Positions 2,362 through 50,739 of a stretch of 64,000 nt of DNA are shown one piece after another. Where the stretch lies: the NCBI GenBank assembly GCA_964359575.1, contig CAYHTV010000001.1, positions 5,547 to 69,546 on the forward strand. The letters are read 5' to 3'. Every line of letters starts with the position of its first letter. Positions within the stretch are counted from its first letter, which is position 1. Source of the DNA: an uncultured Planctomycetales bacterium (lineage in GTDB: Bacteria > Omnitrophota > Gorgyraeia > Zapsychrales > GWA2-47-8). Under the pieces are notes generated by a model, which made no database searches, had not been told where the DNA came from, and saw only the letters and a list, made by a program, of their open reading frames with translations. Both the position numbers and the translations under genes were made by a program.

Positions 2362-4666
2362 TATTTTTTGGCGAAGGGTAAGTTATTTTTGTGGGTTACT
2401 TTCAATAGGGATTTTATTTGGGATTATCGTTTTGATTGCCCATCTGGAAATCCGGGATTTGGATCTCTGGCTGCATTTGGGAATGGGGAAATTTATCGTA
2501 CAGCACGGTTATGTCCCGGATGTCGATATTTTGTCCTACATGGTGGAAGGAAAGCCGTGGATTAATCACGAATGGCTGTTCCAGATTTTCGTGTATTGGA
2601 TTCATAGCTTAAGAGGCGCGGAAGGGCTCATCCGCATGCAGGTCGTGGTGGTTTGGTCCACCATGGTTTTGTTATTGCTCTTGGGATATAACCGCGACAA
2701 ACAATTCATCGTCACCTTTTCTCTCTTATTAGTCCTTTTAATTTACATCACGCGTTTTACCATCCGGCCGGATATTTTTAGCCTGTTATTTTTTGTTCTC
2801 TATATTTATATTTTATCAATTCATATTGATAAACACTGGTCGCTGTTTGTCCTGTTTTTTGTCCAGGTTTTGTGGACCAATATGCATGGGTTTTTCTTTT
2901 TTGGTCCACTCTTTGTGCTGATTGCACTCAGCGCCGAATGGCTCAAGCGGCATGTGAAATTGCCTTACGAATGGAATAAAATCGGACGGTTAACCGACGC
3001 GGAGTACGCCCGGTTAAGGAGAATTTTGCTGGCCGTCATTTTGGCCTGTCTGATTAACCCCGTGACCTTTAAAGGCGCTTGGTACCCGATTGACGTTTTA
3101 CTTGAGCTTCCGGGTAAATCCAAGATATTCTTTGAATATATCCAAGAATTGCAAAAGCCCATCCTTAAAAGCAATGTTTTTTCGATTGAGAATTTGCCGT
3201 TTTATAAACTGATGATTGTCATTTCCATTTATAGTTTTCTTTTTAACCGGCGGAAAATCGATTTAGGGGCACTGCTTTTCTGGCTGATTTTTTTTGCTTT
3301 TTCTTTAGTGGCGGTGAGGAACTTAGTCTTTTTCGCGTTTGCTTCCTATCTCGTGATTGTCACCAACGCGCTCACAATCTCCATGAATGATATTGTACCG
3401 ATCCGTTTTACCCACAAAAGATTTCAATACATTACCGCGGCGCTGTTGAAGATTATCTTAGCGCTGTGGATGATCAATTTTAGCGTGATGATGCGCTCCG
3501 GCGGGTCGTTCGATTTTGATAAATTTGAGATAAAAAGCGATATGGAAGGCATTTCGCTTAAGAATTATCCGAATAAAGCCGTTGATTTTTTGGTGGATAA
3601 TAAGGTGCAGGGGAATATTTTAAATGATTTCAATTCCGGGGCCTATTTGGTTGGGCGATGCTATCCGGATATCAAGGTATTTATCGATGGCCGGACCGAA
3701 GTCTACGGGGCGGATTTTTTTAAAGGTATTTATCAACGGATTTGGCATCAGGGGGATATGGCCTTCTTTGAGCAGCTGGCCAGTGATCGCAATGTCACCA
3801 TCGTTTTGCTCAGCACAATCAATCAGGCAGCGCCAGAAAAAATCCTGGCACATTTTTATTCCAGAGAGGATTGGGTTCCCGTATATTTTAATTACGATGG
3901 GTTTATTTTTGTCAAAAAAGTTCCGGCTCATGAAAAACTCATTGAAAGATTTGCTATCGACTTAACGAAATGGCAGGCGCCTAAATTTGATTTGTATAAG
4001 TTGGGGGCCCGGCGGGTCTCGGCGTATCAATATACTCACCGCGCCTTTTCGTTGGAAACCTTAGGGCTGGAAGAGCCCGCTCTTGATGAAATAAATCAAG
4101 CGCTAAAGATTGATTCTGCGAGCTTCGAGGCGCATAAAATCTTAGGGAAAATTTATGGCAAGCGGGAAGATTTTCAAAAAGCCTTTGAGTATTTTCGGAT
4201 CGCCTCTTCCTTTGATCCAGGCAGCCGGCAGCTAAAGTTCAATCTGGCCCAGGCCTATTATGACTTAGGCGAATATGATTATGCGATTAAACACTATCAA
4301 TCTCTGGCTGAGTCGGATCGCAAAGATGCCAGAGCGCATTTTCTTTTAGCGCGGGCGTATGCGAAAAGCGGCCAATACGATAAGGCGCAGGAGGCGGCGG
4401 CCCGCGCCCATCAGCTGAGTCCCAGCAGCGCGAATGATTTGCTGATGATCGGGGATATCTTTTATGAGCAAAAGCAATTTACCGAGTCACAAAAAATTTA
4501 TCATCTGGTTTTGTCGATGAATAAGGAAACGGCAAAAGTCCGCAATAAGCTGGGATTGAGCTATAACGCCTTAGGAGATAAAGAGAAGGCGCAAGCGGAG
4601 TTTCAAGAGGGATTAAAAGTCGATCCAGAGAATGAGGAATTGAAAAAGAACGAAAAAGAATTATAA
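2354..4666 (+). CDS. Polytopic membrane protein with C-terminal TPR repeats, paralog 2 (tandem duplicate of the previous ORF)
   Basis: 770 aa with the same architecture and conserved motifs as 130-2361; the ATGA overlap suggests translational coupling. Confidence 0.5.
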   Translation: MSDIFWRRVSYFCGLLSIGILFGIIVLIAHLEIRDLDLWLHLGMGKFIVQHGYVPDVDILSYMVEGKPWINHEWLFQIFVYWIHSLRGAEGLIRMQVVVVWSTMVLLLLLGYNRDKQFIVTFSLLLVLLIYITRFTIRPDIFSLLFFVLYIYILSIHIDKHWSLFVLFFVQVLWTNMHGFFFFGPLFVLIALSAEWLKRHVKLPYEWNKIGRLTDAEYARLRRILLAVILACLINPVTFKGAWYPIDVLLELPGKSKIFFEYIQELQKPILKSNVFSIENLPFYKLMIVISIYSFLFNRRKIDLGALLFWLIFFAFSLVAVRNLVFFAFASYLVIVTNALTISMNDIVPIRFTHKRFQYITAALLKIILALWMINFSVMMRSGGSFDFDKFEIKSDMEGISLKNYPNKAVDFLVDNKVQGNILNDFNSGAYLVGRCYPDIKVFIDGRTEVYGADFFKGIYQRIWHQGDMAFFEQLASDRNVTIVLLSTINQAAPEKILAHFYSREDWVPVYFNYDGFIFVKKVPAHEKLIERFAIDLTKWQAPKFDLYKLGARRVSAYQYTHRAFSLETLGLEEPALDEINQALKIDSASFEAHKILGKIYGKREDFQKAFEYFRIASSFDPGSRQLKFNLAQAYYDLGEYDYAIKHYQSLAESDRKDARAHFLLARAYAKSGQYDKAQEAAARAHQLSPSSANDLLMIGDIFYEQKQFTESQKIYHLVLSMNKETAKVRNKLGLSYNALGDKEKAQAEFQEGLKVDPENEELKKNEKEL

Positions 4667-4750: not shown

Positions 4751-6340
4751 ATGAAAATCGCCCTTATTAACCCGCCCTATCTTATCATCTACAAAAAGTT
4801 GAATATTGAGCAGGATGCCTCTGTTCCCCTAGGACTTCTCTATGTCGCTGCTATGCTGGAAAGGCATGGCCATGAAGTCAAGGTTTTTGACTTTAATCTT
4901 CACGAAACCCTGCTTCCTGAAATGGCTGAGCAGATTGGCGAATTTCAGCCGCAGATGATCGGAATTACAGCGGTTACACCGACATTTAATTCGGCTCAGG
5001 AGATTGTGGCCAATTTCAAGCAAAGGTTTCCTCAAACCATTTTTGTTATGGGAGGCCCGCATTTAACTTCTTTACCTAAGCAGTCGCTTGAGCAAACACC
5101 AGCCGCCGATTTCGTCATCGCCGGTGAAGGGGAGTATGCCTTAACCGAGCTGGTTAAGGCCATCGAGGCTGGCCAGACCGATTTTTCTTCCATCAACGGG
5201 TTGACTTATCGGAAGGAAGGACAAGTGATTTCCAATCCGCGCGCCTCTATGATTGAGGATCTGGATCAATTGCCTTTTCCCGCGTATCATTTATTGCCGA
5301 TTACAGAATATGCCCCTTCGGTTGTCTTTCGTGTTGCTGAAAAAAGTACATTTATTATGTCCTCGCGGGGATGCGCGGCGTATTGCACGTTTTGCGCCAA
5401 TAACGTCACCGGCCGCCGGCTGCGCGATCACAGTATTGATTATTTTGTCGGCAAGATTAAATATTTACAAGAGACATATGGATTAAGACATTTTCATATT
5501 GTCGATGATAATTTTATGCATGATCAACAGCGCGTGATTGATATCTGCCAGCGCATCATTGACGAGAAATTAAAAATCACCTGGTTCATCTTTGCCCGGC
5601 CGGACCATTGTCAGAACCTGGAGACACTGAAAATGATGAAAAAAGCAGGATGCGTCTATTTGCAATTTGGGATCGAAAGCGGAAGCGAGCTCATTCTGCG
5701 GCAGATGGGAAAGAAAATTGAAAAGTCAGAATTATATCAGGCCTGTATGAACTGTAAAAAGGCAGGACTTGATTATTTTAATTCTTTTATGATCGGTAAT
5801 CCTAAAGAAACCGTTGAGACCGTGCGCGAGACGATTGATTTTGCAATCAAATTGGATGCGATTATGTCCGGCTTTAATATTTTGATTCCATACCCCGGAA
5901 CGGCTATATTCAAAAAATACTATGAGAAAGATTTTATGAATAACACAACGTGGGAAAAGTGGAACCATATCACCCATGAAGTGCCGATTGATTATCGCCA
6001 TACCAAGTTAACGAAAAAAGAGCTCGATGAGTTGCGTAAAGAATGTATCCGTCGTTATTATCTGCGCCCTCGGCACATACTGCGTTTGATTATGTTTTTT
6101 GGTGTTTCGCGTTTGCTATGGAAGTTTACCAGAAGTTCTTGGAAACATATTTTCTTTTTGTTCTCCGGATTCACGTTTAGTTCCACTAAAAAGAGAGTGC
6201 GCGATCTTGTTCGGCTCGAACCAGGACCTCTCGTGCGACCAGGTCTGAGTCAAGAGCCTGCCTTTGTAAAAACACAGGCTCGGAAAGTCTCCAGAATTTC
6301 AGATTTTATTGATTCCTTTCAAAGGGATAGTGTCGCCTAA
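4751..6340 (+). CDS. B12-binding domain radical SAM protein
   Basis: N-terminal Rossmann-like B12-binding-type domain (MKIALINPPY...GLLYVAAMLERHGHEV) followed by SSRGCAAYCTFC, a CxxxCxxC radical SAM cluster motif. Confidence 0.8.
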   Translation: MKIALINPPYLIIYKKLNIEQDASVPLGLLYVAAMLERHGHEVKVFDFNLHETLLPEMAEQIGEFQPQMIGITAVTPTFNSAQEIVANFKQRFPQTIFVMGGPHLTSLPKQSLEQTPAADFVIAGEGEYALTELVKAIEAGQTDFSSINGLTYRKEGQVISNPRASMIEDLDQLPFPAYHLLPITEYAPSVVFRVAEKSTFIMSSRGCAAYCTFCANNVTGRRLRDHSIDYFVGKIKYLQETYGLRHFHIVDDNFMHDQQRVIDICQRIIDEKLKITWFIFARPDHCQNLETLKMMKKAGCVYLQFGIESGSELILRQMGKKIEKSELYQACMNCKKAGLDYFNSFMIGNPKETVETVRETIDFAIKLDAIMSGFNILIPYPGTAIFKKYYEKDFMNNTTWEKWNHITHEVPIDYRHTKLTKKELDELRKECIRRYYLRPRHILRLIMFFGVSRLLWKFTRSSWKHIFFLFSGFTFSSTKKRVRDLVRLEPGPLVRPGLSQEPAFVKTQARKVSRISDFIDSFQRDSVA

Positions 6341-6381: not shown

Positions 6382-8589
6382 ATGTCGTCTAAAAGTTTAA
6401 CTTCTCACGAAAAACGTTCGCTGGAAATCATTTTTGTCGCAGGTGCCTTTGTTCTGTGGCTTTTTATTTTCCGTGGTTATTTTCTCTATCAGTTAGCCCT
6501 CGGTGGGACAGCGCCGGCTTACTACTACAGGATTAAATATTATTTAGATGGTCTTTGGAATGGTATCTATCCGATGTGGAATCCTTTTCAGTCATGGGGA
6601 TACCCGGATGTTTTGGATATGCGGGTTTTAGGTGAATTTAATCCTTTTCTCTATGTGATCTGGCTTCTCCAAGGAGTCACACAATCGTTTTATCAGGCCT
6701 ATCTCGTTTATTTGGCACTCTATTATTGGTTAGGATTATTAGGGTTTTATTTATTGGCCAAATCAGTTTTGAAAGAATGGCCGCTGGCCTTTGTGGCCTA
6801 TGTGATGGTTATGTTTTCTTCCTTAGGACCAGCGACTTTTACGGAAAACGTCATAAATTTAATTTTTGTGCCACTCGCTTGGTTTTTCTATTTTATGATT
6901 AATTTTTTTAAGCAAGGCGGGCAGCGATTTTTGCTGGGGATGACGCTCGCTTTAATGATTATTCTGACAACGTATTTCCCTTTCTTTTTTGTGACAGTTT
7001 TTGTGATTTTTGCTATCGCTTTTAGCATGATATTTTTCTCTTTGCTCAAGGAAATTTTTGATCGCGGCCTAAAGCAAATTTGGCAATACAAAAAAGTAAC
7101 CATTTTTTGCATCACGGCCGTGTGTCTATCATTAGGGCCTGATCTCCTGTGGTACCGCATGTCCCATGAGGGACAGTTTATGTTTGATTTTCGCCACACG
7201 GGATCTCCTTATCAGGATGTCCTCAGCATGGATCAGGATATGATTAATAACAGCGGCATAAGCGGGGTCGTCACGTGGCGGGGATTGTTTTCGGATTTAG
7301 ATGTTTTTGCCGGAACAGAGCCAATCTTTTTCTACATTCCCATTTTTATTTATCTTATTCTTTTGCTCTCCATTCTGAACCGTGTCAATCGGCTTTTAGC
7401 CCTGCTGGGCACTTTAGGTTTTTTTCTTTTTTTTATAACGTTAGCTGATGCGACACCGATCCATCGTTTTTTGTATGATCATGTTTATTTTTTTAAATTA
7501 TTTAGAAATTTATTTTTTTTGCTGTATTTGTCTATTCCAATTTATGTCCTCTTTGCGATGGAACAATTAAGAATATTTTTGAGTGCTGCACCATTAATAA
7601 AGCAGAAAAAGGGATATTTACTTGTTTTTGTTACTTTTATCCATAGTGTGTTTGCTTTATTTTTGTATCGTTTGGGAAATGTTATGGGGCCTTCGTATCT
7701 CGCTGTTTTTCTGAGCTGGATTAGTTTTGTGCTTTATGGAGCGGGTTTTTTGAAAAGTCGCTTTGTTCTGCTGACTCTTTTATTGAGCATGGCGATTTTA
7801 AGTCAAGGGATTGCGGTCAATTTTTATGTTTGTCGAAATGCAAAACCTTACTTGATACAGATGGACAGTCCGCGGGAGACCCCATCATTTTCGTTTATTC
7901 GGCCGGCTGCGGATCATGATCCTCTTATCCCTGAGGCGCGCGGATATGCCGCTCGACGTAAAGTCATGCGTGATTCTTCCGGGTTTGTCGACAGCGAGTA
8001 TGTGGGGGTGCGATGGTCGCATTTTCTTTTAAATCATGCCGATCGGGAAAAATTAGAAAAATACACACGCTATAAATTTGTGCTTTATGACCGCGTTGAA
8101 TTCTTAAATGACAAAAGCACTGAGGCCGTAGCGGTCAATAAAATTTTTAGCGAGGTTGATAAAACAGCGTATATTTTTGATTCTTTTGCATCATCGGAAA
8201 ATAAGCAGGCTGATCAGCCGCCGAAAGAAGCCCAGTTTATTACGGAAAACTCAGATCAGTTTAAAATTGTTGATTTTAATTTAAATGAACTACGATTGAA
8301 GACCAATTTTCCGGTCCGCCATTTTTTAGTATATAATGACAGCTTTCATAAAGATTGGGCCGCGTTCATCAATGGTCAAAAGGTCAAGGTGTGGCGGGCG
8401 AATTATGCCTTTAAAGGCGTCTGGCTTCCAGCTGGAGAAAATGTTGTTTATTTCCGATACGGCCAGACTTGGTTGTATGGATATTATCTTTTTTTAATTG
8501 CGTTTATGGTATTTTTTTTGGGACGAGTGATTTGGTCGTTTCAACGCAAAAATTTAGGTGCACAATGTTTTATTCTTCAAGAGAATTAG
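6382..8589 (+). CDS. Large polytopic membrane protein, YfhO-like (possible GT-C type glycosyltransferase)
   Basis: 735 aa; many TM helices, a C-terminal soluble region, then a final TM helix; the family assignment rests on architecture only. Confidence 0.4.
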   Translation: MSSKSLTSHEKRSLEIIFVAGAFVLWLFIFRGYFLYQLALGGTAPAYYYRIKYYLDGLWNGIYPMWNPFQSWGYPDVLDMRVLGEFNPFLYVIWLLQGVTQSFYQAYLVYLALYYWLGLLGFYLLAKSVLKEWPLAFVAYVMVMFSSLGPATFTENVINLIFVPLAWFFYFMINFFKQGGQRFLLGMTLALMIILTTYFPFFFVTVFVIFAIAFSMIFFSLLKEIFDRGLKQIWQYKKVTIFCITAVCLSLGPDLLWYRMSHEGQFMFDFRHTGSPYQDVLSMDQDMINNSGISGVVTWRGLFSDLDVFAGTEPIFFYIPIFIYLILLLSILNRVNRLLALLGTLGFFLFFITLADATPIHRFLYDHVYFFKLFRNLFFLLYLSIPIYVLFAMEQLRIFLSAAPLIKQKKGYLLVFVTFIHSVFALFLYRLGNVMGPSYLAVFLSWISFVLYGAGFLKSRFVLLTLLLSMAILSQGIAVNFYVCRNAKPYLIQMDSPRETPSFSFIRPAADHDPLIPEARGYAARRKVMRDSSGFVDSEYVGVRWSHFLLNHADREKLEKYTRYKFVLYDRVEFLNDKSTEAVAVNKIFSEVDKTAYIFDSFASSENKQADQPPKEAQFITENSDQFKIVDFNLNELRLKTNFPVRHFLVYNDSFHKDWAAFINGQKVKVWRANYAFKGVWLPAGENVVYFRYGQTWLYGYYLFLIAFMVFFLGRVIWSFQRKNLGAQCFILQEN

Positions 8590-23413: not shown

Positions 23414-23487
23414 GGGCCCATAGCTCAGTCGGTCAGAGCAGTTGACTCATAATCAATTGGTCCCTGGTTCGAGTCCAGGTGGGCCCA
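23414..23487 (+). tRNA. tRNA-Met (anticodon CAT; elongator-type, could instead be tRNA-Ile2/lysidine)
   Basis: Cloverleaf with acceptor stem GGGCCCA/TGGGCCC, anticodon loop CTCATAA and TTCGAGT T-loop; G1-C72 pairs, so it is not an initiator; no encoded CCA. Confidence 0.8.
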
Positions 23488-23503: not shown

Positions 23504-23580
23504 GGGCGTATAGCTCAGCTGGTTAGAGCGCTGCCCTCACATGGCAGAGGCCGAGGGTTCGAGTCCTTCTATGCCCACCA
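23504..23580 (+). tRNA. tRNA-Val (anticodon CAC)
   Basis: Acceptor stem GGGCGTA/TATGCCC, anticodon stem CTGCC/GGCAG with loop CTCACAT, T-loop TTCGAGT, encoded CCA. Confidence 0.85.
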
Positions 23581-24396: not shown

Positions 24397-24854
24397 TGAA
24401 AGTTTTGGAAATATTTACCGATGGGGCGTGCCGCGGCAATCCGGGGCCGTCAGCCATCGGGGTGGTTATTAAGGAAAACGGCAAGGTTGTTAAAAAGATT
24501 GCACAATCAATAGGGGAAGCCACCAATAATATTGCCGAATACACGGCCTTAGTTTGCGCCCTGAAGGCGGCGGCAGGGCTTAAAGCCCAGCAGTTAAAAA
24601 TTTATACCGATAGTGAACTGCTTTATTATCAGTTGACCGGCACCTATCAGATTAAAAATGAGAATTTGAAATTACTTTTTGCTAAGGCTCAGGAAGCGGG
24701 GAAGAAATTTGAGCATATCCAAATTAAGCGTATTCCCCGTGAGCAAAATCAAGACGCCGATAAGTTGGCGACCCAAGCTATAAAAAAAGAGCAGGCCAAG
24801 GTGGTTGCCTCGGTGTTTTACACCGGGGAGGAAAGTCCGAGCTCCGCAGGATAA
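24393..24854 (+). CDS. rnhA: Ribonuclease HI
   Basis: LEIFTDGACRGNPGPSAIGVV, IAEYTALVCAL and IYTDSELL catalytic motifs of the RNase H fold; the last ~22 codons overlap the rnpB 5' region. Confidence 0.85.
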   Translation: MMKVLEIFTDGACRGNPGPSAIGVVIKENGKVVKKIAQSIGEATNNIAEYTALVCALKAAAGLKAQQLKIYTDSELLYYQLTGTYQIKNENLKLLFAKAQEAGKKFEHIQIKRIPREQNQDADKLATQAIKKEQAKVVASVFYTGEESPSSAG

Positions 24855-25263
24855 TGTATCCCGGTAATGCGGGACGATCCTAGTACTGTGTTTCCGAAAT
24901 TATGTACATAGAGGGACACAGTACTGTACTATGTTCCTCTGAATAAAATTAAAGTAACATAGTACTGGTTTATCGATTGAATAAAATCAATCAGTGGAAA
25001 TCTAGGAACGGATTAGAGCTACAGTGACGATGATCTCGGTGTTTACATCGAGGGAAGTGAAACGAGCAATCTCTACATGGAGCAAGGCCAAATAGGAAGA
25101 GAGCCTTAGCAAAATAATGGGGCACGAATCGATCCGGTTCGTTATTATCTTCGGGTAGGCTGCAAGAGTCAAGAGAGTAATCTCTTAGAGTGAGTGAGAT
25201 AACTACCCCTCATGCCTAAAAACATCATGAGGAACATAACTCGGCTTATTGGTCTGCTCAATT
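24786..25263 (+). ncRNA. rnpB: RNase P RNA (bacterial type A)
   Basis: GGAGGAAAGTCCGAGCTCC (P4 5' strand) at 24826-24844; CCCGGTAATGCGGG; GGAGCAAGGCCAAATAGG at 25079; CGGGTAGGCTGC; ACATAACTCGGCTTATTGG (P4 3' strand) with compensatory change CCGAG/CTCGG relative to E. coli CCGGG/CCCGG; P1 pairing AAGAGCAGGCCAA (24787-24799) with TTGGTCTGCTCAA (25248-25260); about 476 nt including an expansion around 24880-24960. Confidence 0.8.
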
Positions 25264-25266
25264 ATC

Positions 25267-37744: not shown

Positions 37745-38194
37745 GTGTTAGCAAAATTATTCGTTATGATGATGTTGACCACGACTCTGGTGGGATGCGC
37801 TTCAACGCAGCAAAAAACAGCGCTTAACCAGTTGCAAATGCAGGTTGCGGACTTGGAGCGCCAAGTAGGGGAAAAGGATGATGAAATCGCTGACCTGCAG
37901 GATGAGGTGGATCGTTTGAATGTAGATCTGCAAAAAAAGACAAAAATGGCAAGCGAGGAAGCTATAAAACCGTTGAGCAAAAAGGACGGTGAAATTATTC
38001 GTGTCGGGGCAAGCGTGGGACAAGTTCAGATCGCCTTAAAAAAAGCCGGGTATTATGACGGCGCTATCGATAGCAAGTTAGGAGAAAATACCAAGCGCGC
38101 TATTGTTCAATTCCAAAAAGATAATAATCTTAATGCTGATGGGCTTCTTGGAAAAAAGACCTGGGAAAAGTTAAAGACTTATTTTGAAGAATAG
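37745..38194 (+). CDS. Lipoprotein with coiled-coil and peptidoglycan-binding (PG_binding_1) domain
   Basis: GTG start after an AAAGGAGGA RBS; LVGC lipobox; C-terminal GQVQIALKKAGYYDGAIDSKLGENTKRAIVQFQKDNNL. Confidence 0.7.
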   Translation: MLAKLFVMMMLTTTLVGCASTQQKTALNQLQMQVADLERQVGEKDDEIADLQDEVDRLNVDLQKKTKMASEEAIKPLSKKDGEIIRVGASVGQVQIALKKAGYYDGAIDSKLGENTKRAIVQFQKDNNLNADGLLGKKTWEKLKTYFEE

Positions 38195-38303: not shown

Positions 38304-38942
38304 TTACAATAGTGAGGGTTGGGCAAGTACTGACCATTTGCTTGTTTTAAGATCAAGTTCCGAAACGGCATGATAATTGTGGCGCTCACGGATGTGCTTA
38401 AGAAAGTCCTTGAGCGTTGTGGTGTGTGTTTTTCTTAATTCCGCGTTGTCAAACCAAAAATAATACCCATCGGCTTGAAAAGCGCAAATCGCATGCGCTC
38501 GATGGTTTTTTCTCACCGCTAAAAAACGCGGCTGGTAGCCTAAAACCTGTAAAACCTCTGCGTTTAAAAAAGTGTAATCCTCGCAATCGCCCTTTTTTAT
38601 GTTGAGAGTTTCCTCTGGTGTAGCCCAGTGATCTTGTGTTTCATCCGTTGTGTAATGGATATTTTGCTTGAGCCAGCCGGCGTAATCTTCTAAGGAACGG
38701 ATATGATGAGCTTGAATAAGGTTGATAATTTTGAAGTCAATGGATTTAGGGCGGACGATAAGAACGCCATCTTTATGTCTGATTTTTTCCTGCTGAATAT
38801 GAAATCGTGAAGCTGGAAGCGAGGTCGCCGCGCTCACTGAAACGGTGAGAACGGTTGTAGAAAATAGAAAAAAGAATGTGCTGCTAGAAATTTTTAAGGG
38901 CATGGGGCATAAGTCCGTTTTGAGAGTAAATCTCATGGACAT
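38304..38942 (-). CDS. Secreted transglutaminase-like (papain-fold) cysteine peptidase-domain protein
   Basis: Signal peptide; GDCEDYTFLNAEVLQVLGYQPRF (TGc Cys motif) followed by a His (HAICAF) and an Asp (FDN). Confidence 0.5.
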   Translation of the reverse strand: MSMRFTLKTDLCPMPLKISSSTFFFLFSTTVLTVSVSAATSLPASRFHIQQEKIRHKDGVLIVRPKSIDFKIINLIQAHHIRSLEDYAGWLKQNIHYTTDETQDHWATPEETLNIKKGDCEDYTFLNAEVLQVLGYQPRFLAVRKNHRAHAICAFQADGYYFWFDNAELRKTHTTTLKDFLKHIRERHNYHAVSELDLKTSKWSVLAQPSLL

Positions 38943-39032
38943 TTGCCTGCGGCTTGATTAGAATGATTCCACTATTCATGAAATTGTACTAAATAAATTT
39001 TAGCAGTCCGCCAGCAGAAAAAAAAGCTTTTT

Positions 39033-39977
39033 ATGAAAAAATTTGTTTTGACCGTTACCTTAAATCCGGCCGTGGATGAAGTGCTGCAAATTAAAAAATG
39101 CGTATCTCCTAGAGGGTTTTTTGTTGAACGAAGGCTGCAGAGTGCCGGTGGCAAAGGTATCAATGTCTCGCGTGTCTTGACACGTTTGGGCACGCCGACA
39201 TTGGCCACGGGATTGCTGGGCGGCCCCACGGGAGAATTTATAATAAGAGAATTGGATCACGAAGGCGTCAAAAACGATTTTGTTGAAAGTGCCGTTCCTG
39301 CCAGGATCAATTTAACGATTCTGTTTGCCCAGCCGCATAAAATGACTCGTTGTGTGGAAGATGGTTTGCCGGTTTCCTATTTGGATATTCAAAGATTTAA
39401 AAAGAAATTTAAGATATTGTTGAAAAAGTGTTCGTGGGTCGTATTCGCGGGACGGATTCCTCGTGATGCAGGAGAAAGGCTTTACGCCAACTTGATTTAT
39501 ATTGCCCAGCGGGAAGGAGTGCGAACATTTTTAGACAGCCAAGGCCGAGCATTGGCAGCAGGCCTGAAAGCCAAGCCAATGTACATTAAGCCGAATCTCC
39601 AAGAGGCACAGCAGTTTTTACGGCAGCAGCTTAATTCCAAAGGAAAATTAAAGGAAGCGGTCCGTTGCTTTTTATGTTTAGGCGTTCAAAATGTTTTTAT
39701 TACTTTAGGCTCGCGCGGGGCGGTGGGTTCGGATGGCCGCCAGTTATGGTTAGCCAGGCCGCCGCGGGTTCAATGTGTCAATCCTGTTGGCGGCGGGGAT
39801 GCATTTATTGGCGGATTTATTAGCGCTTTTGAAAGGAATAAAGATTTTTGGCAGGCTTTAAAGAGCGCTGTGGCCGCGGGCACGGCTAATGCCTTGAGCT
39901 TACAGCCGGGGACGGTTGCGAAAAATATTGTTCACAAAATAGCCGCAAAGGTTAGAATAGAAGCAATAAAATTTTAA
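39033..39977 (+). CDS. PfkB-family carbohydrate kinase (1-phosphofructokinase/tagatose-6-P kinase-like)
   Basis: N-terminal VTLNPAVDE...GGKGINVS and C-terminal NPVGGGDAFIGGF anion-hole motif. Confidence 0.85.
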   Translation: MKKFVLTVTLNPAVDEVLQIKKCVSPRGFFVERRLQSAGGKGINVSRVLTRLGTPTLATGLLGGPTGEFIIRELDHEGVKNDFVESAVPARINLTILFAQPHKMTRCVEDGLPVSYLDIQRFKKKFKILLKKCSWVVFAGRIPRDAGERLYANLIYIAQREGVRTFLDSQGRALAAGLKAKPMYIKPNLQEAQQFLRQQLNSKGKLKEAVRCFLCLGVQNVFITLGSRGAVGSDGRQLWLARPPRVQCVNPVGGGDAFIGGFISAFERNKDFWQALKSAVAAGTANALSLQPGTVAKNIVHKIAAKVRIEAIKF

Positions 39978-39994
39978 ACGAAACGGAGAAAGAT

Positions 39995-40651
39995 ATGGCA
40001 ACATTTGATGCGACACTGTATGACGGCAAAAAACAACAGAAAATTCCCGATGTGTTGAGCGATACCTTGCGCGAGCAGCTGTTGCAATACGCTAAGGATT
40101 TTAAAACTTCCTGGGTGAACCTTGGACAGAATCTTTATAGCGTTTGGCGGGATAAATTGTATTACACTTGGGGTTATGAGAAGTTTGAGCATTATACCCA
40201 GGAAGAGTTAGGGATGCAAAAGCCGCTGGCCATCAAATTGCTCAAGACGTATTTTTTCTTGGAGCAGGAAGAACCGGCGTACCTTAAAGAAGAATTCACG
40301 CAGTCGCGGTCGCCGGTTGCGGTGCCAGGTTATGAAGCTGTTAACATCCTGCGGTTGGCTAAGAAAAATAAGGATCTGAATAAAAGCGATTACATCAAAT
40401 TAAAAAAAGATATTTTTGAAAACGGTAAAGATGCCGCCGCCATTCGTAAGGATTTAACGGCATTAATAAAAGAGCGCAAGGTTGTGGACCCCGAGGAAGA
40501 GCGGGAAAGGCGCAGTGAACTGACTGTCCGCAAATTGCTCAACGCGATCCGTTTGTTTACGAAGGACGCGGAGGCCTTAAAATTATTGCCGGCGAATTTG
40601 ATTACCGAGGCCGAAGGGCTTATGGAAAAATTGGAAGCCGAGATCGCCTAA
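39995..40651 (+). CDS. Hypothetical acidic helical protein (first gene of the peptidase/ATP-grasp operon)
   Basis: No recognisable motif; 4-nt gap to the next gene. Confidence 0.4.
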   Translation: MATFDATLYDGKKQQKIPDVLSDTLREQLLQYAKDFKTSWVNLGQNLYSVWRDKLYYTWGYEKFEHYTQEELGMQKPLAIKLLKTYFFLEQEEPAYLKEEFTQSRSPVAVPGYEAVNILRLAKKNKDLNKSDYIKLKKDIFENGKDAAAIRKDLTALIKERKVVDPEEERERRSELTVRKLLNAIRLFTKDAEALKLLPANLITEAEGLMEKLEAEIA

Positions 40652-40654
40652 CGT

Positions 40655-41722
40655 ATGGAAACGCAAACCATCCCGCCTGCGGAAATTAAATATCCTATGG
40701 ATATCGCCATCATTTCAGAAGAGGATTTGCTGAATACCCGCATTTGTGACTTGCCCGTTAAAATCGAGGGGACCTGGCTGGAAGAATGTATCGCTCAACT
40801 TTACCAGGAACTTGCCGCGAAGGGATTGCAATTTTATCCGGCGTGTTATCTTGCCGATGAATGGCTGACCCCGCAGAACGAAACCGTGATCGGCATCCCA
40901 TTTTATTTAGCGCATTCCCGCTTGACGGCCCTCGAACGGAAGATGATGCTGGAAGCTGAAGGGGAAACCAAAGACTGGTGCATGAAACTTTTGCGCCACG
41001 AGACCGGGCACGCGATCAGTTACGCCTACAATTTGTATAAGCGCAAGAAATGGCAAAATATTTTTGGCTCTCCCCGCGCAGAGTATAAAGACACCTACCG
41101 TTTCCGGCCGTATAGCAAAAATTATGTTCGGCATCTCGAGGCGTATTATGCCCAGTATCATCCAGACGAAGATTTTGTTGAGACCTTTGCTGTCTGGTTG
41201 ACACCCCATATGGATTGGCGCAATCAATATGGGGGATGGGGCGCGCTAGAAAAGCTCATCTATGTCGATGAGGTGATGGCCGAGATCCAAGGCCAAGCGC
41301 CGATTGTCAAAAGCCAGCAGAAATTTTGGCGGCTTTCGACTTTAAAAATTACCTTGGCAAATTATTATAAGAAGAAAAGGGAATACCGCGCCGAAGATTT
41401 CCTGGATTTTCACGATGGAAATTTGAAGAAAATTTTTAGTGAAAAAGGTCCCGAAGGCCAGCCTGTTTTCTTAGCCGCCGATATTATAGAAAAGTATCAG
41501 CGGGAAATTTTAAAAAGTTCTGCCCTTTGGACCGGTGAGAAGAAATATATCATTAATCAGCTTATTAAGACGATTCAAAAACGCTGTCAGGAATTGAAAT
41601 TGGCTGCCGCTGATCCAGAGCCCATGGCCGTGTTGCGATTAACGACTTATATCACGACTCTGGTCATGAACTATCTCTATACTGGCTGGTTTCGCGGCGA
41701 GAAGAGCAAGAAGAAAAAATGA
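40655..41722 (+). CDS. Putative zinc-dependent peptidase-like protein (HExxH)
   Basis: LRHETGHAISY (HExxH) with a downstream acidic residue in HPDEDFVETFAVW; its stop overlaps the ATP-grasp start. Confidence 0.5.
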   Translation: METQTIPPAEIKYPMDIAIISEEDLLNTRICDLPVKIEGTWLEECIAQLYQELAAKGLQFYPACYLADEWLTPQNETVIGIPFYLAHSRLTALERKMMLEAEGETKDWCMKLLRHETGHAISYAYNLYKRKKWQNIFGSPRAEYKDTYRFRPYSKNYVRHLEAYYAQYHPDEDFVETFAVWLTPHMDWRNQYGGWGALEKLIYVDEVMAEIQGQAPIVKSQQKFWRLSTLKITLANYYKKKREYRAEDFLDFHDGNLKKIFSEKGPEGQPVFLAADIIEKYQREILKSSALWTGEKKYIINQLIKTIQKRCQELKLAAADPEPMAVLRLTTYITTLVMNYLYTGWFRGEKSKKKK

Positions 41723-42744
41723 AAAAGAAATTAAAAATTTTGCTTTTGTTCAATAGCCCGTATCAAAAGCCGCGCGGCTATGATTATAAAGATGAGATGT
41801 CTGACCCAGAGAATATGTATACGGAAAGAGATGTCTTAGGGGCGCTGCAGGCCAATGGCTATGAAGTAAGAATTCTTGGTATTTTTAATGATGCCACGCC
41901 ATTATTTGAGGAAATCAAAGAGTTTCCGCCCGATGTGATTTTTAATATGGTGGAAATTTTTCAGGATAAAGCGCACCTGGATAAAAATATCGCCGCAATT
42001 TTGGAAATGCTCAATATCCCTTACACAGGCGCTTCCTTGGGCAGTTTATTTTTATGCAATAACAAAGCGTTGAGCAAAAAAATTTTGAGTTTTCACCGGA
42101 TTAAAGTCCCGTGGTTTTATACGTTTTACCGCGGCAAAAGGGTTTGGCTTCCTAAAAAGATGAAACTTCCGGTGGTCATTAAGCCTTTGTGCGAGGAGGC
42201 CTCGCGCGGAATTTCCCAGGCCTCGGTTGTAGATAACGAGGAGGCTTTTATCGAACGCATCCGATTTATCCACGAAAGCATGAGCATGGATGCGATTGCC
42301 GAAGAGTATGTACAGGGGCGAGAGCTTTATGTGAGCGTTTTGGGGAGTAAAAGATTAAACGTTTTTCCGCCGCGCGAATTAAAGTTTGGCCAATTGCCTG
42401 AGGACGAGCCGCGGATTGCCACTTACCGTGCCAAATGGGATGATGATTACCGCGACCGCTGGGGGATCAAGAGTGTTTTTCCGGGCAAACTCGCCGATGG
42501 TGTTGAAGAGGAAATCCACGCGGTGTGCAAGCGGGCTTTCCGGGCGCTGGATTTGGATGGCTATGTGCGTTTTGATATCCGCGTGACACCGGAAGGGAAG
42601 ATATATATCATCGAACCTAATGCGAATCCGTGCATTGCCAAAATTGATGAAATGGCACAATCCGCCAACAAAATTGGGATCACTTACGAAGAGTTAATCC
42701 GCAAAATTGTTATGGTGGGCTTTCAGCGAAATATGAGATCATGA
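41719..42744 (+). CDS. ATP-grasp ligase, D-alanine--D-alanine ligase family
   Basis: Pre-ATP-grasp N domain, LPVVIKP, EEYVQGRELYVSVLG, IIEPNANPC; 341 aa. Confidence 0.8.
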   Translation: MKKKLKILLLFNSPYQKPRGYDYKDEMSDPENMYTERDVLGALQANGYEVRILGIFNDATPLFEEIKEFPPDVIFNMVEIFQDKAHLDKNIAAILEMLNIPYTGASLGSLFLCNNKALSKKILSFHRIKVPWFYTFYRGKRVWLPKKMKLPVVIKPLCEEASRGISQASVVDNEEAFIERIRFIHESMSMDAIAEEYVQGRELYVSVLGSKRLNVFPPRELKFGQLPEDEPRIATYRAKWDDDYRDRWGIKSVFPGKLADGVEEEIHAVCKRAFRALDLDGYVRFDIRVTPEGKIYIIEPNANPCIAKIDEMAQSANKIGITYEELIRKIVMVGFQRNMRS

Positions 42745-42747
42745 GCT

Positions 42748-43998
42748 ATGACTGATAAAATTTCAGAATTTATCAACAATAATTTTGAATTGCTCCTCTG
42801 GCTGAACATTGCCTGGCTGTTATTTTTTGTTGTGATGCTGGTCCTCCTGAAAATTCAGGATATCGCGGGTGATCGGCCGCGGACGTTGATTCCCAAAGTC
42901 TTGCTGATTTTTGTGGTCATGGGGCAGATAGCCTTGGTACTCTTGTCCGGTTATATTTATTGGTTCAATTATCAGCGCAAAAGTGTCGCAACATTCAGCC
43001 AGCGGCTTATTCCAGGGACCCATTGGGTCAAAGAGGACTTGATGGTTTATTTTATTTCCGGCAGGGATTTAATTTCCATTCATGCCAATGGCTCGAATAA
43101 GCAAAAGATTTTTCAGTCTCCCGATAAAATCCGGGAATATCATTTCTCGCCGGATGGTCAATATCTGTTGGTTGTGACCGAACGGGAACTTTATCAAGTC
43201 AATCTGGCCACTTTACACCGCGAACTCATCGATTTCATCCCCATTGCTGATCCTGGAAAGCAGTTAAGCGGTGTCATCGGGAGAATCAGTTGGTCGCCGG
43301 ATAGCCAAAGATTTTGTTATGAAATCACCAAATGGTCGAATGTCTCCTCCTATAATCAATTTTATATTTATCATGTGCAAAATAAGCAGAAGCAGCCGCT
43401 GCGAAAATTAACCAAGAAGATTTCCTACTTGTTTTGGGATAAAAAAGCAACCAGCCTTTACTTTTTTCAGCAAGAGGCCATGGATACTTCGCGGTATCCG
43501 TATCCCTATAAAATAAAGATTTATAAAATTCCTTTATCGACTCTGACTGCCGAAATGGTCGCGGAGGTGTTAACGAAAAAGGCGGAAATCTCTCGGCTGG
43601 AGGTGACGGGCCGTGGCATTAATCTTTTTTGGAAAGGAAATAATTTTTCTTTTAACCGTTCCGGCCAGCGGGATTACGATTGGGTGTCGGAAACCGGTGC
43701 GCGGCTGGGAATCGATGAGGATGACTTCCTCTATTATATTAAGAACCGCTGGTGGCGAAAGCGACTGTTTCGGGTGCCGCGCGATCCTCTCCCCGGTGAT
43801 TTTAACCGTTACCAATTTAGTGGAGGGATGCTTTCGGTTGGGCATCTGCGCTGGCTGCCGGGGGGGCGTTATGTGATTATGGGGCACAGCACCATGGGCA
43901 TTTTGATATTGGAGCCAAGCACAGGAAAAATCGGACGATTGACGGATACGCCCGGGTATACCTTTGGGTGGTATCAAGAACTTAAAACTCAAAATTAA
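42748..43998 (+). CDS. Membrane-anchored PD40/TolB-like beta-propeller protein
   Basis: N-terminal TM helices, then repeated SPDGQYLL / WSPDSQRF PD40 motifs. Confidence 0.55.
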   Translation: MTDKISEFINNNFELLLWLNIAWLLFFVVMLVLLKIQDIAGDRPRTLIPKVLLIFVVMGQIALVLLSGYIYWFNYQRKSVATFSQRLIPGTHWVKEDLMVYFISGRDLISIHANGSNKQKIFQSPDKIREYHFSPDGQYLLVVTERELYQVNLATLHRELIDFIPIADPGKQLSGVIGRISWSPDSQRFCYEITKWSNVSSYNQFYIYHVQNKQKQPLRKLTKKISYLFWDKKATSLYFFQQEAMDTSRYPYPYKIKIYKIPLSTLTAEMVAEVLTKKAEISRLEVTGRGINLFWKGNNFSFNRSGQRDYDWVSETGARLGIDEDDFLYYIKNRWWRKRLFRVPRDPLPGDFNRYQFSGGMLSVGHLRWLPGGRYVIMGHSTMGILILEPSTGKIGRLTDTPGYTFGWYQELKTQN

Positions 43999-44327: not shown

Positions 44328-44951
44328 TTGTCGAGAAATTTAATTTTTTCAAAAAAAAGGAGAACTTATATGGGAAGCGAAAAAAATCAATGGATGTTGT
44401 GGGTGATTGTCATTGGGGTGGTTATTATCACGTTGATCGCTTTTAATTATCACGGTGATAAATCAGACTCAATCCCTTTAAGTGAGATTTTCCCAGAAGA
44501 AATGGGGACGCAGGAAGGACAAAATATTGAGTATGAGTTTGTCGACAGTAAACCGGCGCAAACCCAAGCCGCAGCGCCTGCGCTAGCGGGTGGTAAGCTG
44601 GTTCTCGCTAAGCCAGCCGTTTCTAAAGCTGTCGCTGTTCCCGCAGCGCCGGCAAAGACTTCCCCAGCTGTTCCCGCGGCCGCGCCAGTAACTGTTTCTC
44701 CGTCCACGAGGGGAGACTACTCAATCCAGGTGTTGTCCTCCAAAGATAAGGCCGCCACGGAGAAATCTTTGGAAAGAATAAAAGCCAAAGGGCATGCCGC
44801 TTATCTGGTAACCCGGGATCTCGGGGAGAAGGGAATTTGGTACCGTGTGAACATCGGTCCGTTTGAAACGAAACAGCAGGCTGAGGCGTATTTGCCAAAA
44901 ATTCAAGCGGATTATAAAAGTAGTTTTGTAATTAGTGGAAAGAAAGAATAG
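44328..44951 (+). CDS. SPOR domain-containing protein
   Basis: N-terminal TM anchor, Ala/Pro-rich linker, and a C-terminal SPOR fold (YSIQVLSSKDKAATE...YRVNIGPFETKQQAEA). Confidence 0.75.
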   Translation: MSRNLIFSKKRRTYMGSEKNQWMLWVIVIGVVIITLIAFNYHGDKSDSIPLSEIFPEEMGTQEGQNIEYEFVDSKPAQTQAAAPALAGGKLVLAKPAVSKAVAVPAAPAKTSPAVPAAAPVTVSPSTRGDYSIQVLSSKDKAATEKSLERIKAKGHAAYLVTRDLGEKGIWYRVNIGPFETKQQAEAYLPKIQADYKSSFVISGKKE

Positions 44952-44974: not shown

Positions 44975-45274
44975 ATGCGAAGTTTTTTCATTTTAGTCTT
45001 AGTAGCATTGGTAGCATTGGTAGCTGGCTGCACAACGGCTCAAAAAGGAGCGGCGGTTGGCGCGCTGGGGGGTGGGGCGTTGGGTGGCATTATCGGCCAT
45101 CAGTCCGGCCACGGCGGGACAGGAGCGGCGATTGGGGCCGCTGCCGGTGCGATAACCGGGGTAATTGTCGCTGAGAAAATGGCTGATAAATTCTGTCCGG
45201 TTTGCGGCGCAACTTATACAAATAGCACAGAGTTTTGCCCCAAGGATGGGACGGAATTAAAAGAGAAGCAATAA
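44975..45274 (+). CDS. Glycine-zipper lipoprotein with C-terminal CPxCG...CP zinc-ribbon-like motif
   Basis: LVAGC lipobox, a GxxxG-rich zipper, and C-terminal CPVCGATYTNSTEFCPKDG. Confidence 0.55.
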   Translation: MRSFFILVLVALVALVAGCTTAQKGAAVGALGGGALGGIIGHQSGHGGTGAAIGAAAGAITGVIVAEKMADKFCPVCGATYTNSTEFCPKDGTELKEKQ

Positions 45275-49140: not shown

Positions 49141-50739
49141 TTGCCAAGACTATGCTCGCGAGGGTCTATGAAAAAATTTTTAATCATTATGTTAGGACTG
49201 GCAGCGATGATTCCATTCGGTTTTGCAAATTCAGAAATTAAAGAACCCAATGTCAGCGGGAAATTTTATGATGCCGACCCCAAGCGTCTGGCTGCTGCGG
49301 TTGATACTTTTATTAACCGCGCCGAGGTTGCGGACTTGGATAAAAATATCGCGATGATTATTGCTCCGCACGCTGGGTATATTTATTCCGGCGCGGTTGC
49401 GGGATACAGTTTTAAGGCAGCGCGCCGCGGGCAATATAAGACGATCGTTATTATCGCGCCGAGTCATTTTTATGGATTTGACGGAATTTCGATTTGGCCG
49501 GAAGGAGGGTTTCAAACACCGCTGGGAATCGCGCCGGTCGATCACGATTTTACGCAGAAGCTCATCGGCCGTAATGAAAAATTTTATTTTGACGCCTTGG
49601 CGTTTGAGCAAGAGCATGCGCTGGAGGTCGAAATCCCATTTTTGCAAAGAACCTTCAGTGATTTTAAGATTGTGCCGGTCGTGATGGGACAGCCGACATT
49701 TCAGACATGCGAGGCCTTTGCCGCGGCGTTAAAAGAAAACATTGGCGAGCGAGATGATGTCTTGGTTGTGGTCAGCACAGATTTGTCGCATTATCACGAT
49801 GATACCTTTGCCCGCGCAATGGATCAGCGGACGTTAGCCATGGTCAAGGCAGGCGACGCGAAGGAATTGTGGAAACAGTGCCGCCTGGGAACAATGGAGA
49901 TGTGCGGCTTTGTGCCGGTCACCACGGCATTATTGTACGCCAAGCTGCAAGGTTTGCGGGATGTGGAAATCGCGCGTTATGCCAATTCTGGGGATGTGAC
50001 CGGTGATCGGCACAGCGTGGTGGGGTATGCGTCGGTTATTTTTTACAGCATAGGAAAGTATAAAACTTTCCTAGCTGCTAAAAACTCCTTTCCTATGCAG
50101 CAAAGAAGATGCGACGAACGAAGTGAGGAGTTTTCTTGTGCGCCGGCCGCTGGAGACCAAGAGGGGCTGCTCAGTCTGGAACAAAAGAAAAAATTATTAT
50201 CGATCGCGCGTAAATCCATTGAAAACCACGTGCGCACTGGCACAAAATTGGGGATAGAGGAATCTGATCCTCGTCTTTTCAAAGAGGAAGGGGCTTTTGT
50301 GACGATTCATCGGCAGGGACGATTGCGTGGGTGCATCGGGAATATTATTGGGCAGGGTCCATTGTATCTTACTGTGCGCGACATGGCGATTACCGCGGCT
50401 TCGCGTGATCCGCGATTTCAACCCGTGAGCGAGGAAGAATTGAAAGATATTACGGTCGAGGTCTCGGTTCTCTCGGAGCCCAAACCCGTCAAGGACATGG
50501 ACGAAATTGTCATGGGTGTGCATGGCGTTATTGTGAGCCGAGGAGCGCATCATGGAGTTTTTTTGCCGCAGGTAGCGACCGAAACCGGCTGGAGCCAAGA
50601 AGAGTTCCTCGCACAGCTGTGTGAACAAAAAGCCGGCCTGCCGCGGGACTGCTGGAAAGACCATCAAACGCGTTTAGAAATTTTCACCGCCCAAGTTTTT
50701 GCCGAGAAAGATATAAATTATGGGCCTTTGTACAACTAA
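49141..50739 (+). CDS. Memo-like (AmmeMemoRadiSam system protein B) fused in frame to an AMMECR1 domain (protein A); real start probably the ATG at 49168
   Basis: N-terminal half has IIAPHAGYIYSG...APSHFY...DLSHYHDD (MEMO1/extradiol-dioxygenase-like); C-terminal half has GAFVTIHRQGRLRGCIG...HGVIVSRGAHHGVFLPQV (AMMECR1); the 94-bp repeat family 2 copy B is translated in frame between them; the stop codon lies inside MITE copy 7. Confidence 0.7.
   Translation: MPRLCSRGSMKKFLIIMLGLAAMIPFGFANSEIKEPNVSGKFYDADPKRLAAAVDTFINRAEVADLDKNIAMIIAPHAGYIYSGAVAGYSFKAARRGQYKTIVIIAPSHFYGFDGISIWPEGGFQTPLGIAPVDHDFTQKLIGRNEKFYFDALAFEQEHALEVEIPFLQRTFSDFKIVPVVMGQPTFQTCEAFAAALKENIGERDDVLVVVSTDLSHYHDDTFARAMDQRTLAMVKAGDAKELWKQCRLGTMEMCGFVPVTTALLYAKLQGLRDVEIARYANSGDVTGDRHSVVGYASVIFYSIGKYKTFLAAKNSFPMQQRRCDERSEEFSCAPAAGDQEGLLSLEQKKKLLSIARKSIENHVRTGTKLGIEESDPRLFKEEGAFVTIHRQGRLRGCIGNIIGQGPLYLTVRDMAITAASRDPRFQPVSEEELKDITVEVSVLSEPKPVKDMDEIVMGVHGVIVSRGAHHGVFLPQVATETGWSQEEFLAQLCEQKAGLPRDCWKDHQTRLEIFTAQVFAEKDINYGPLYN
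50045..50138 (+). repeat. Structured repeat family 2, copy B (inside CDS, in frame)
   Basis: ACAGCATAGGAAAGTATAAAACTTTCCTAGCTGCTAAAAACTCC...CGAACGAAGTGAGGAGTTTTCTTG; translated as SIGKYKTFLAAKNSFPMQQRRCDERSEEFS; contains an internal ATG and a GAGGAG-7nt-GTG arrangement. Confidence 0.75.

Follow-up and report, generated by a model that had tools for sequence, protein, structure and literature searches.

A conserved pairing of a Peptidase_Mx-like zincin with a Ddl-like ATP-grasp ligase in Omnitrophota and other bacterial phyla

What does a relative of D-alanine-D-alanine ligase (Ddl) do beside a putative zinc peptidase? The question is raised by a 64,000-nucleotide stretch of DNA from an uncultured bacterium of the phylum Omnitrophota (GenBank assembly GCA_964359575.1, contig CAYHTV010000001.1, positions 5,547 to 69,546; deposited as a Planctomycetales bacterium), which we will call the window. 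A gene for an ATP-grasp protein overlaps the end of a gene for an HExxH protein; we will call the two proteins AG and Mx, respectively. An original prediction, made from the DNA sequence alone, had placed both in a four-gene system with a 218-amino-acid protein and a propeller-like protein, and had pointed to a transglutaminase-like gene nearby. We find that the conserved unit is a two-gene cassette, Mx plus AG, which is inherited together across at least eight bacterial phyla. Its features in the window are:

40655-41722, plus strand: Mx, an HExxH protein (Peptidase_Mx), 355 amino acids
41719-42744, plus strand: AG, a Ddl-like ATP-grasp protein, 341 amino acids
41719-41722, plus strand: ATGA overlap, in which the start codon of AG lies on the stop codon of Mx

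For a cross-phylum survey, distant Mx members were aligned and the alignment was searched against a single genome from each GTDB species, which returned 80 loci. These came from Gemmatimonadota, Acidobacteriota (Terriglobia and Thermoanaerobaculia), Planctomycetota, Myxococcota, Gammaproteobacteria, Candidatus Eisenbacteria, Candidatus Rokubacteria, and Omnitrophota, and the loci from Myxococcota include one from a cultured bacterium, Archangium gephyra. Downstream sequence of 1.1 kb or more is available for 78 Mx loci, and 69 of these have an ortholog of AG within 1.5 kb of Mx. The two genes are co-directional in 53 of these 69 loci, often with a 4-nt overlap, and convergent in the other 16. 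The overlap also recurs in the distant loci L006 and L088. With 69 of 78 loci from many phyla showing the arrangement, the coupling of Mx and AG is tight far beyond chance, and the pairing of an ATP-grasp protein with an HExxH protein, as originally proposed, is genuine and conserved. The pairwise-identity matrices of Mx and AG, which span identities of 26-94%, correlate at r = 0.95, and none of 999 Mantel permutations reaches this value; any two vertically inherited genes give correlated distances, so the coefficient is weak evidence by itself.

We also picked five further loci at 34-45% identity (L005, L006, and L088-L090). Their flanking genes are mutually unrelated; the pair is adjacent in at least three of the five, and in L005 the AG gene lies 3.5 kb downstream. 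The survey loci share no third gene next to the pair, and no Rfam element either. Since the flanking genes change and no third gene is conserved, the real unit is the Mx-AG cassette. The original prediction had staked itself on conservation of the neighborhood. For Mx and AG the adjacency does hold across phyla; the four-gene unit is rejected, as only these two genes are conserved.

Could Mx and AG be two unrelated housekeeping genes that are held together by chromosomal synteny, without a shared function? The whole region around the pair, which includes genes for LepB, PlsY, a PG_binding protein, the transglutaminase-like protein, and a PfkB-family kinase, is syntenic within Omnitrophota, and this could explain the conservation locally. 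But in at least eight phyla Mx and AG are still neighbors although none of the flanking genes stays the same, and the pair survives the inversion of one partner, as in the convergent loci. Recent horizontal transfer of copies of a single element is disfavored by the range of pairwise identities (26-94%). Because the adjacency crosses phyla, we consider mere synteny to be effectively excluded.

An ATP-grasp ligase next to a protease, in variable genomic contexts, also follows the logic of graspetides, which are ribosomally synthesized and post-translationally modified peptides. In that case, Mx would cleave the leader from a ribosomal precursor that AG cross-links or extends. However, no small open reading frame (18-90 amino acids) is shared beside the pair beyond closely related genomes, so no candidate precursor flanks it across phyla, and no transporter or tailoring gene is conserved either. 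AG lies in the Ddl clade (its best non-Ddl match in Pfam is only ATP-grasp_3, at 7e-07), while graspetide ligases form another clade. Also, very high conservation in a phylum with reduced genomes is atypical of secondary metabolism. We therefore view a graspetide-like cassette as highly improbable. As a separate observation, four loci (L062, L063, L076, and L084), all from Gemmatimonadota, have an open reading frame of ~50-80 amino acids with the motif ...EPVGIVISRG...F/YxWG... just upstream of Mx.

What kind of protein is Mx? It matches Peptidase_Mx (PF15887) with 31.2 bits, where 27 bits would pass the gathering score, and the match is confined to positions 89-164 of the 236 in the profile, which form the catalytic core. 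An AlphaFold2 model (from 50 homologs; pLDDT 84) has a zincin domain and then a helical domain at residues ~220-345, which gives Mx an extra C-terminal domain of ~130 residues. Two motifs in the core are relevant to catalysis:

40997-41011, plus strand: HETGH motif (H115, E116, H119), predicted zinc ligands and general base
41147-41182, plus strand: YAQYHPDEDFVE motif (Y165...E172...E176), predicted catalytic Tyr and, 7 residues on, the Glu predicted as third zinc ligand

The HETGH motif is invariant in 50 Mx sequences from Omnitrophota. In 86 sequences from many phyla, this motif is at least 95% conserved, and so are Y165, H169, P170, D171, E172, D173, and E176. The spacing of 7 from Y to E is the same as between Y728 and E735 of lethal factor and between Y178 and E185 of PPEP-1. 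Given the HExxH motif and the conservation of Y165 and E172 at this spacing, Mx looks like an active metallopeptidase.

The family is large: when all 1.84 billion cluster representatives were scanned with Mx in HMMER, 2096 relatives emerged, of which 564 had E-values below 1e-30. We looked for domain fusions, and the longer homologs had no informative extra domain. Within Omnitrophota, Mx is unusually conserved (57-73% identity). A simple hydropathy scan, with no signal-peptide predictor used, found no transmembrane segment in Mx or in AG, which is consistent with a cytosolic location for both proteins.

The described relatives of Mx differ from it in several ways. The structurally characterized Peptidase_Mx protein BACCAC_01431 (PDB 4l7a) is related to it through the catalytic core only, and the model for the HExxH lipoproteins of Bacteroidota that are associated with substrate import (TIGR04549) gives a score of 19.6 for the window's Mx against a cut-off of 75. 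Unlike these proteins, Mx lacks a transmembrane segment or a recognizable lipoprotein signal, and it has its own C-terminal helical domain and an ATP-grasp partner. Mx has no sequence-level family match to the gluzincins similar to anthrax lethal factor, PPEP, or MtfA. Enzymes of that kind serve as secreted toxins or proteases, and MtfA is a peptidase that titrates a regulator. To our knowledge, none of them has a ligase partner.

AG belongs to the Ddl-like clade of the ATP-grasp superfamily. It matches Dala_Dala_lig_C (PF07478) at 5.7e-25, and its matches in PDB are to Ddl structures only (the best is 3r23, E = 2e-18). Yet it scores well below the cut-offs of the NCBIfam models for Ddl: 123.4 versus 243 bits for PRK01372 and 105.3 versus 245.65 bits for TIGR01205. 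Against the AG family, the median score is 71 bits for DdlB from Escherichia coli and 191 bits for the window's AG.

We aligned 70 members of the AG family with E. coli DdlB and compared the functional residues. The equivalents of K97, K144, S151, E180, E187, K215, R255, D257, E270, and N272 of DdlB are 97-100% conserved. In the numbering of AG, the nucleotide- and magnesium-binding residues (K116, K155, E195, E202, K239, R284, D286, E299, and N301) are likewise 97-100% conserved. The last of these form the segment:

42574-42621, plus strand: AG magnesium and phosphoryl-transfer segment, D286...E299-x-N301 (D257, E270, and N272 of DdlB), 97-100% conserved in the 70 members

with R284 (R255 of DdlB) just upstream of it. 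The positions that bind D-Ala in DdlB are another matter. The E15 motif is absent, H63 is replaced by E79 (99% of members), and L282 is replaced by E311 (97%). Also, S150 becomes A or G, Y216 is W or variable, S281 is variable, and G276 is changed. Because AG is far under the cut-offs for Ddl and its D-Ala-binding residues are replaced, it is not a canonical Ddl of EC 6.3.2.4. Rather, AG is a non-canonical relative of Ddl with what appears, from the aligned residues, to be a rebuilt pocket. And because the ATP-binding, magnesium-binding, and catalytic residues are kept while the D-Ala positions are not, AG is probably a competent ligase with a specificity other than that of Ddl. The original prediction had named a sole canonical Ddl as the identity that would count against it; in score (123 versus 243 bits) and in residues, AG is not of that type.

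Might AG nevertheless be a divergent but working D-Ala-D-Ala ligase, with Mx as a VanX-like cytosolic dipeptidase that tunes the D-Ala-D-Ala pool? The pair would then be part of cell-wall housekeeping. AG does share the ATP-grasp fold and identical ATP, magnesium, and phosphoryl-transfer residues with Ddl enzymes (DdlB and the VanA family), which are its nearest sequence relatives: its best matches in both PDB and NCBIfam are all Ddl, and some of its homologs carry the name "D-alanine-D-alanine ligase" from the Joint Genome Institute (JGI). AG is 67-90% identical across many Omnitrophota, as for an essential enzyme, and some of the neighboring genes are related to the cell wall (the PG_binding_1 protein, a SPOR-domain protein, and the predicted secreted transglutaminase-like protein). 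A preprint reports K01921 in 176 of 176 genomes of Omnitrophota, without specifying the gene.

Several differences from Ddl argue against this explanation. AG lacks the GGxSxExxVS/E15 motif, and other residues, including an invariant Glu at two positions, stand in for those that bind D-Ala1 and D-Ala2. Its scores of 105-123 bits fail the curated cut-offs of 243-246, and NCBI names its homologs "ATP-grasp domain-containing" or "hypothetical" instead of Ddl. It lies outside any mur/fts cluster (the open reading frames scanned in the 64-kb window include no mur or fts gene), and it is always paired with a zincin. The AG family is also paired with Mx in Acidobacteriaceae and Myxococcota. Bacteria of these groups have ordinary ddl genes in their dcw clusters. 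Searches with tblastn, using AG and E. coli DdlB as queries, found no second Ddl-like gene in the window, and across all of the loci that we fetched, DdlB matches the AG genes only. Given the limits of this check, and given the preprint's count of 176 of 176, the housekeeping explanation keeps a small probability.

The best explanation that we can offer, with a probability of about one half, is that AG and Mx form a cytosolic ligase/hydrolase couple that acts on a single amide-linked product and is encoded by a co-inherited cassette. AG would activate a carboxylate, presumably as an acyl-phosphate, which would then be attacked by an amine; D-Ala-D-Ala would not be made. The invariant E79 and E311 of AG hint at an amine partner with a positive charge, for instance a polyamine, the side chain of Lys, or the N-terminus of a peptide, but we have low confidence in this detail. 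Mx would be a cytosolic gluzincin of the lethal factor/PPEP/MtfA type, with zinc bound by H115, H119, and E172, with E116 as the base, and with Y165 stabilizing the transition state. Either AG would make an amide bond that Mx trims or removes, or both enzymes would process the same peptide or protein one after the other. By analogy, a peptide or protein substrate is slightly favored by the extra domain of Mx and by the action of its apparent relatives on polypeptides, and the Ddl fold of AG leans towards a small molecule.

A narrower version of this idea is protein tagging: a particular conserved protein would receive an amino acid from AG, on a terminus or on the side chain of a Lys, and Mx would either take this amino acid off again or expose the acceptor beforehand. 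In Omnitrophota, the 218-amino-acid protein would be a possible target or adaptor. The apparent structural relatives of Mx (lethal factor, the PPEPs, and MtfA) act on polypeptides, and its helical domain of ~130 residues could bind a protein. The invariant acidic residues in the pocket of AG fit a cationic amine as the nucleophile, the identities within the phylum are unusually high for both proteins (57-73% for Mx and 67-90% for AG), and in one clade the junction between the 218-amino-acid protein and Mx is tight. In contrast, the characterized enzymes with a Ddl fold use small substrates, the flanks of the pair hold no conserved gene for a candidate target, and the 218-amino-acid protein is absent outside Omnitrophota, lacks linkage to Mx in 37 of its 63 loci, and has an unconserved C-terminus. 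We see protein tagging as a possible but rather unlikely explanation. We are equally tentative about a broader formulation, in which AG and Mx would be the writer and eraser for an ATP-dependent aminoacylation whose acceptor is a cationic amine; this amine would belong either to a conserved cellular protein, as its N-terminus or a Lys side chain, or to a polyamine-type metabolite.

Besides the limited weight of the distance correlation, several points count against a ligase/hydrolase couple of AG and Mx. That the two share a substrate is inferred from their conserved adjacency only. The 16 convergent loci imply that translational coupling is not obligatory. The DdlB sequence behind the residue mapping was typed by hand (its alignment was nonetheless in line with expectation), and the search for a second Ddl covered the 64-kb window and the fetched loci only. 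Finally, seven Mx loci have no AG in reach, and five of these seven (L017, L028, and L031-L033) carry an unrelated conserved protein of ~580 amino acids that flanks Mx:

L017, 5221-6969, minus strand: ~580-amino-acid protein
L031, 1054-2781, minus strand: ~580-amino-acid protein
L032, 11062-12795, minus strand: ~580-amino-acid protein
L033, 10971-13190, minus strand: ~580-amino-acid protein
L028, 7938-9989, plus strand: ~580-amino-acid protein

The five copies are 51-65% identical to each other and have no match in Pfam, in NCBIfam, or, by profile search, in PDB. (An impression that they contain motifs like those of glutamine synthetase had no support and was dropped.) This protein may be an alternative partner of Mx, in which case the clade of Mx that lacks AG may use a second, unrecognized partner enzyme.

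Which of the other genes near the pair belong with it? All six open reading frames that the original prediction names or implies are present at exactly the stated positions. Apart from Mx and AG, these are:

38304-38942, minus strand: transglutaminase-like protein, 212 amino acids
39033-39977, plus strand: PfkB-family hexose-phosphate kinase, 314 amino acids (TIGR03168, 280 bits versus a cut-off of 216)
39995-40651, plus strand: 218-amino-acid protein, all-helical, net-neutral
42748-43998, plus strand: propeller-like protein, 416 amino acids, with two N-terminal transmembrane helices

The gene for the 218-amino-acid protein ends 3 nt before Mx, and AG ends 3 nt before the propeller gene; together with the 4-nt ATGA overlap of Mx and AG, these junctions agree, within the counting convention, with the spacing of 4 nt that had been described. 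The PfkB gene had been left outside the operon, but its stop codon is just 17 nt before the start of the gene for the 218-amino-acid protein, so the apparent operon, judged from gene spacing only, probably comprises five genes rather than four.

The domain assignments in the original prediction hold up against hidden Markov models (Peptidase_Mx, Dala_Dala_lig_C, and DUF553/Transglut_core, with no family for the 218-amino-acid protein), but its wider membership does not. Close relatives in Omnitrophota (L001-L004) keep the order transglutaminase-like gene (on the minus strand), PfkB, 218-amino-acid protein, Mx, and AG. They also keep LepB and PlsY further upstream, which indicates general synteny. 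In the survey with Mx, homologs of the 218-amino-acid protein, PfkB, the propeller, and the transglutaminase-like protein are confined to loci from close relatives in Omnitrophota. We conclude that PfkB, the 218-amino-acid protein, and the propeller are local passengers instead of components of the system, and that the transglutaminase-like protein is outside the system as well.

The 218-amino-acid protein was described as acidic and helical, without a recognizable family, and as a possible substrate or carrier. It is indeed predicted to be all-helical (pLDDT 80), and we found no relatives of it by sequence in Pfam, NCBIfam, or PDB, including by a Pfam search of 49 members at E ≤ 1 and a profile search of PDB. 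It is not acidic: its pI is 6.7, and D+E and K+R both number 37. It does not match the 195-amino-acid protein that is encoded upstream of Mx in L005 (by hhalign). A separate survey of metagenomes that was seeded with this family gave 80 loci of Omnitrophota type (L091-L170), 63 of them with room for a neighbor. Mx directly follows the 218-amino-acid gene in 26 of the 63, and the other 37 have other neighbors. The family is widespread within Omnitrophota, in varied contexts, and was not found outside of that phylum, and the C-terminus of the protein is not conserved. Thus, the 218-amino-acid protein is attached to Mx-AG in only one clade of Omnitrophota, and we reject it as a dedicated substrate or carrier. 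In L098, a homolog of this protein (7001-7651) is directly followed by a homolog of the propeller (~960-2225 nt past its start), without Mx-AG, which suggests that the cassette was inserted into this backbone or lost from it. The model of the 218-amino-acid protein weakly resembles the folds of the DNA-binding domain of ParB/KorB and of Raf1-alpha; a role in DNA binding is a lead and not a result.

The other neighbors are no more constant. PfkB is upstream of the pair only in L001-L004, L091, and L127; it is probably co-transcribed with the pair in the window and unlinked to it elsewhere. The 416-amino-acid protein has predicted transmembrane segments at residues 12-42 and 45-73, in agreement with its description as membrane-anchored, and its propeller matches are all below threshold (PD40 at 19.4 versus 20.9 bits, DPPIV_N at 17.4 versus 22). 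Its best match in PDB is to a propeller, 2ojh, and is weak (E = 0.022), and its ortholog in L001 has a precomputed match to Tricorn_2nd. It is a probable beta-propeller. As a member of the system it fails, since it directly follows AG only in the window and in the closest relative, L091; in L001-L004, it is absent or 5 kb away (the latter in L001).

The 212-amino-acid protein is a bona fide member of the transglutaminase-like superfamily, with matches above the cut-offs to DUF553 (45.2 versus 20.5 bits) and to Transglut_core (27.8 versus 23 bits). Its N-terminus resembles a signal peptide, so it is predicted to be secreted. It is encoded on the opposite strand, one gene away, and has homologs only in L001-L004, L091, and L127; none were found in the 80 loci outside of the close relatives in Omnitrophota. 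A role in the system is rejected, as the gene is not conserved with the pair. The original prediction also drew a parallel to predicted peptide-tagging or small-metabolite ligase systems. Among the peptide-modification systems are those with a circularly permuted ATP-grasp, an Alpha-E protein, and a cytoplasmic transglutaminase in one conserved operon. Like these, the pair has a predicted amidoligase in a conserved operon with a peptidase-type protein, and a transglutaminase-like gene is nearby in the window. But our Pfam scan found neither an Alpha-E domain nor a circularly permuted ATP-grasp (CP_ATPgrasp), and the transglutaminase-like protein is of a secreted type, is encoded on the other strand, and does not travel with the pair.

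The window itself is ordinary chromosome, with genes for SMC, DnaG, RpoD, YebC, ScpB, aromatic amino acid biosynthesis, LepA, LepB, PlsY, and PEP carboxykinase, as well as RNase P RNA and two tRNAs. Base composition is even over the region, so there is no sign of a foreign island. The three central proteins have their best homologs in Candidatus Omnitrophota, with 73-90% identity to proteins named "Omnitrophica WOR_2 RIFCSPHIGHO2_01_FULL_48_9". Scans of the region for promoter and terminator consensus sequences gave no excess over shuffled expectation, and neither the window nor eight loci from other phyla contained a riboswitch or another RNA leader. No plasmid copy of the system was found. 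We also considered a known anti-phage defense system; the PADLOC models match none of the five proteins.

Several other features of the window were recorded. The operon is flanked by genes for small envelope-related proteins, a linkage that lies within the synteny of Omnitrophota only:

37745-38194, plus strand: coiled coil and PG_binding_1 domain, lipoprotein-like N-terminus
44328-44951, plus strand: SPOR-domain protein
44975-45274, plus strand: Gly-rich protein, 99 amino acids, lipoprotein-like N-terminus, C-terminal CxxC...CP motif

Further away are:

24788-25264, plus strand: bacterial RNase P RNA, class A (137.7 bits)
23414-23487 and 23504-23577, plus strand: tRNA genes
49141-50739, plus strand: 532-amino-acid fusion of Memo-like and AMMECR1 domains (AmmeMemoRadiSam-type proteins)
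6382-8589, plus strand: 735-amino-acid open reading frame without a Pfam family at E ≤ 1e-5, preceded by genes for two large TPR proteins (130-4666) and for a radical SAM enzyme that binds B12 (4751-6340)

How does the pair compare to known systems? Couples of a ligase and a hydrolase include glutathionylspermidine synthetase/amidase, RimK with the RimB protease, and TTL/TTLL with carboxypeptidases. In each, an ATP-dependent amide ligase is coupled, genetically or physically, to a peptidase that acts on its product, which is the logic that we propose, by analogy, for AG and Mx. The analogy is functional only: the ligases of those couples are from the GspS-like, RimK-like, and TTL clades instead of the Ddl-like clade, and the peptidases are CHAP, aspartic, and M14 enzymes instead of a probable lethal factor-like zincin. 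An ATP-grasp amidoligase with a peptidase is thus a known general kind of system, but a couple made up of a Ddl-fold ligase and a Peptidase_Mx protein of probable lethal factor fold did not turn up in the searchable literature, which did not include the survey of ATP-grasp/Alpha-E/transglutaminase systems by Iyer et al. 2009 (Mol Biosyst 5:1636).

If the pairing is functional, then Mx and AG are a widespread enzyme couple that awaits an assigned chemistry, with 2096 cluster representatives in the Mx family and with occurrences of the pair in phyla of soil and sediment and in many Omnitrophota. Because some pipelines label AG genes as D-Ala-D-Ala ligase (as in the JGI names), KEGG-style surveys of peptidoglycan synthesis in uncultured phyla could miscount. 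The presence of the pair in the cultured bacterium A. gephyra (CP102578; locus L069, with AG at about 3,695,590-3,696,630 of the record) makes the question experimentally tractable. And if the writer/eraser proposal were true, the tubulin TTL/carboxypeptidase cycle would have a bacterial counterpart in AG and Mx, a ligase of the Ddl fold and a zincin of the lethal factor fold.

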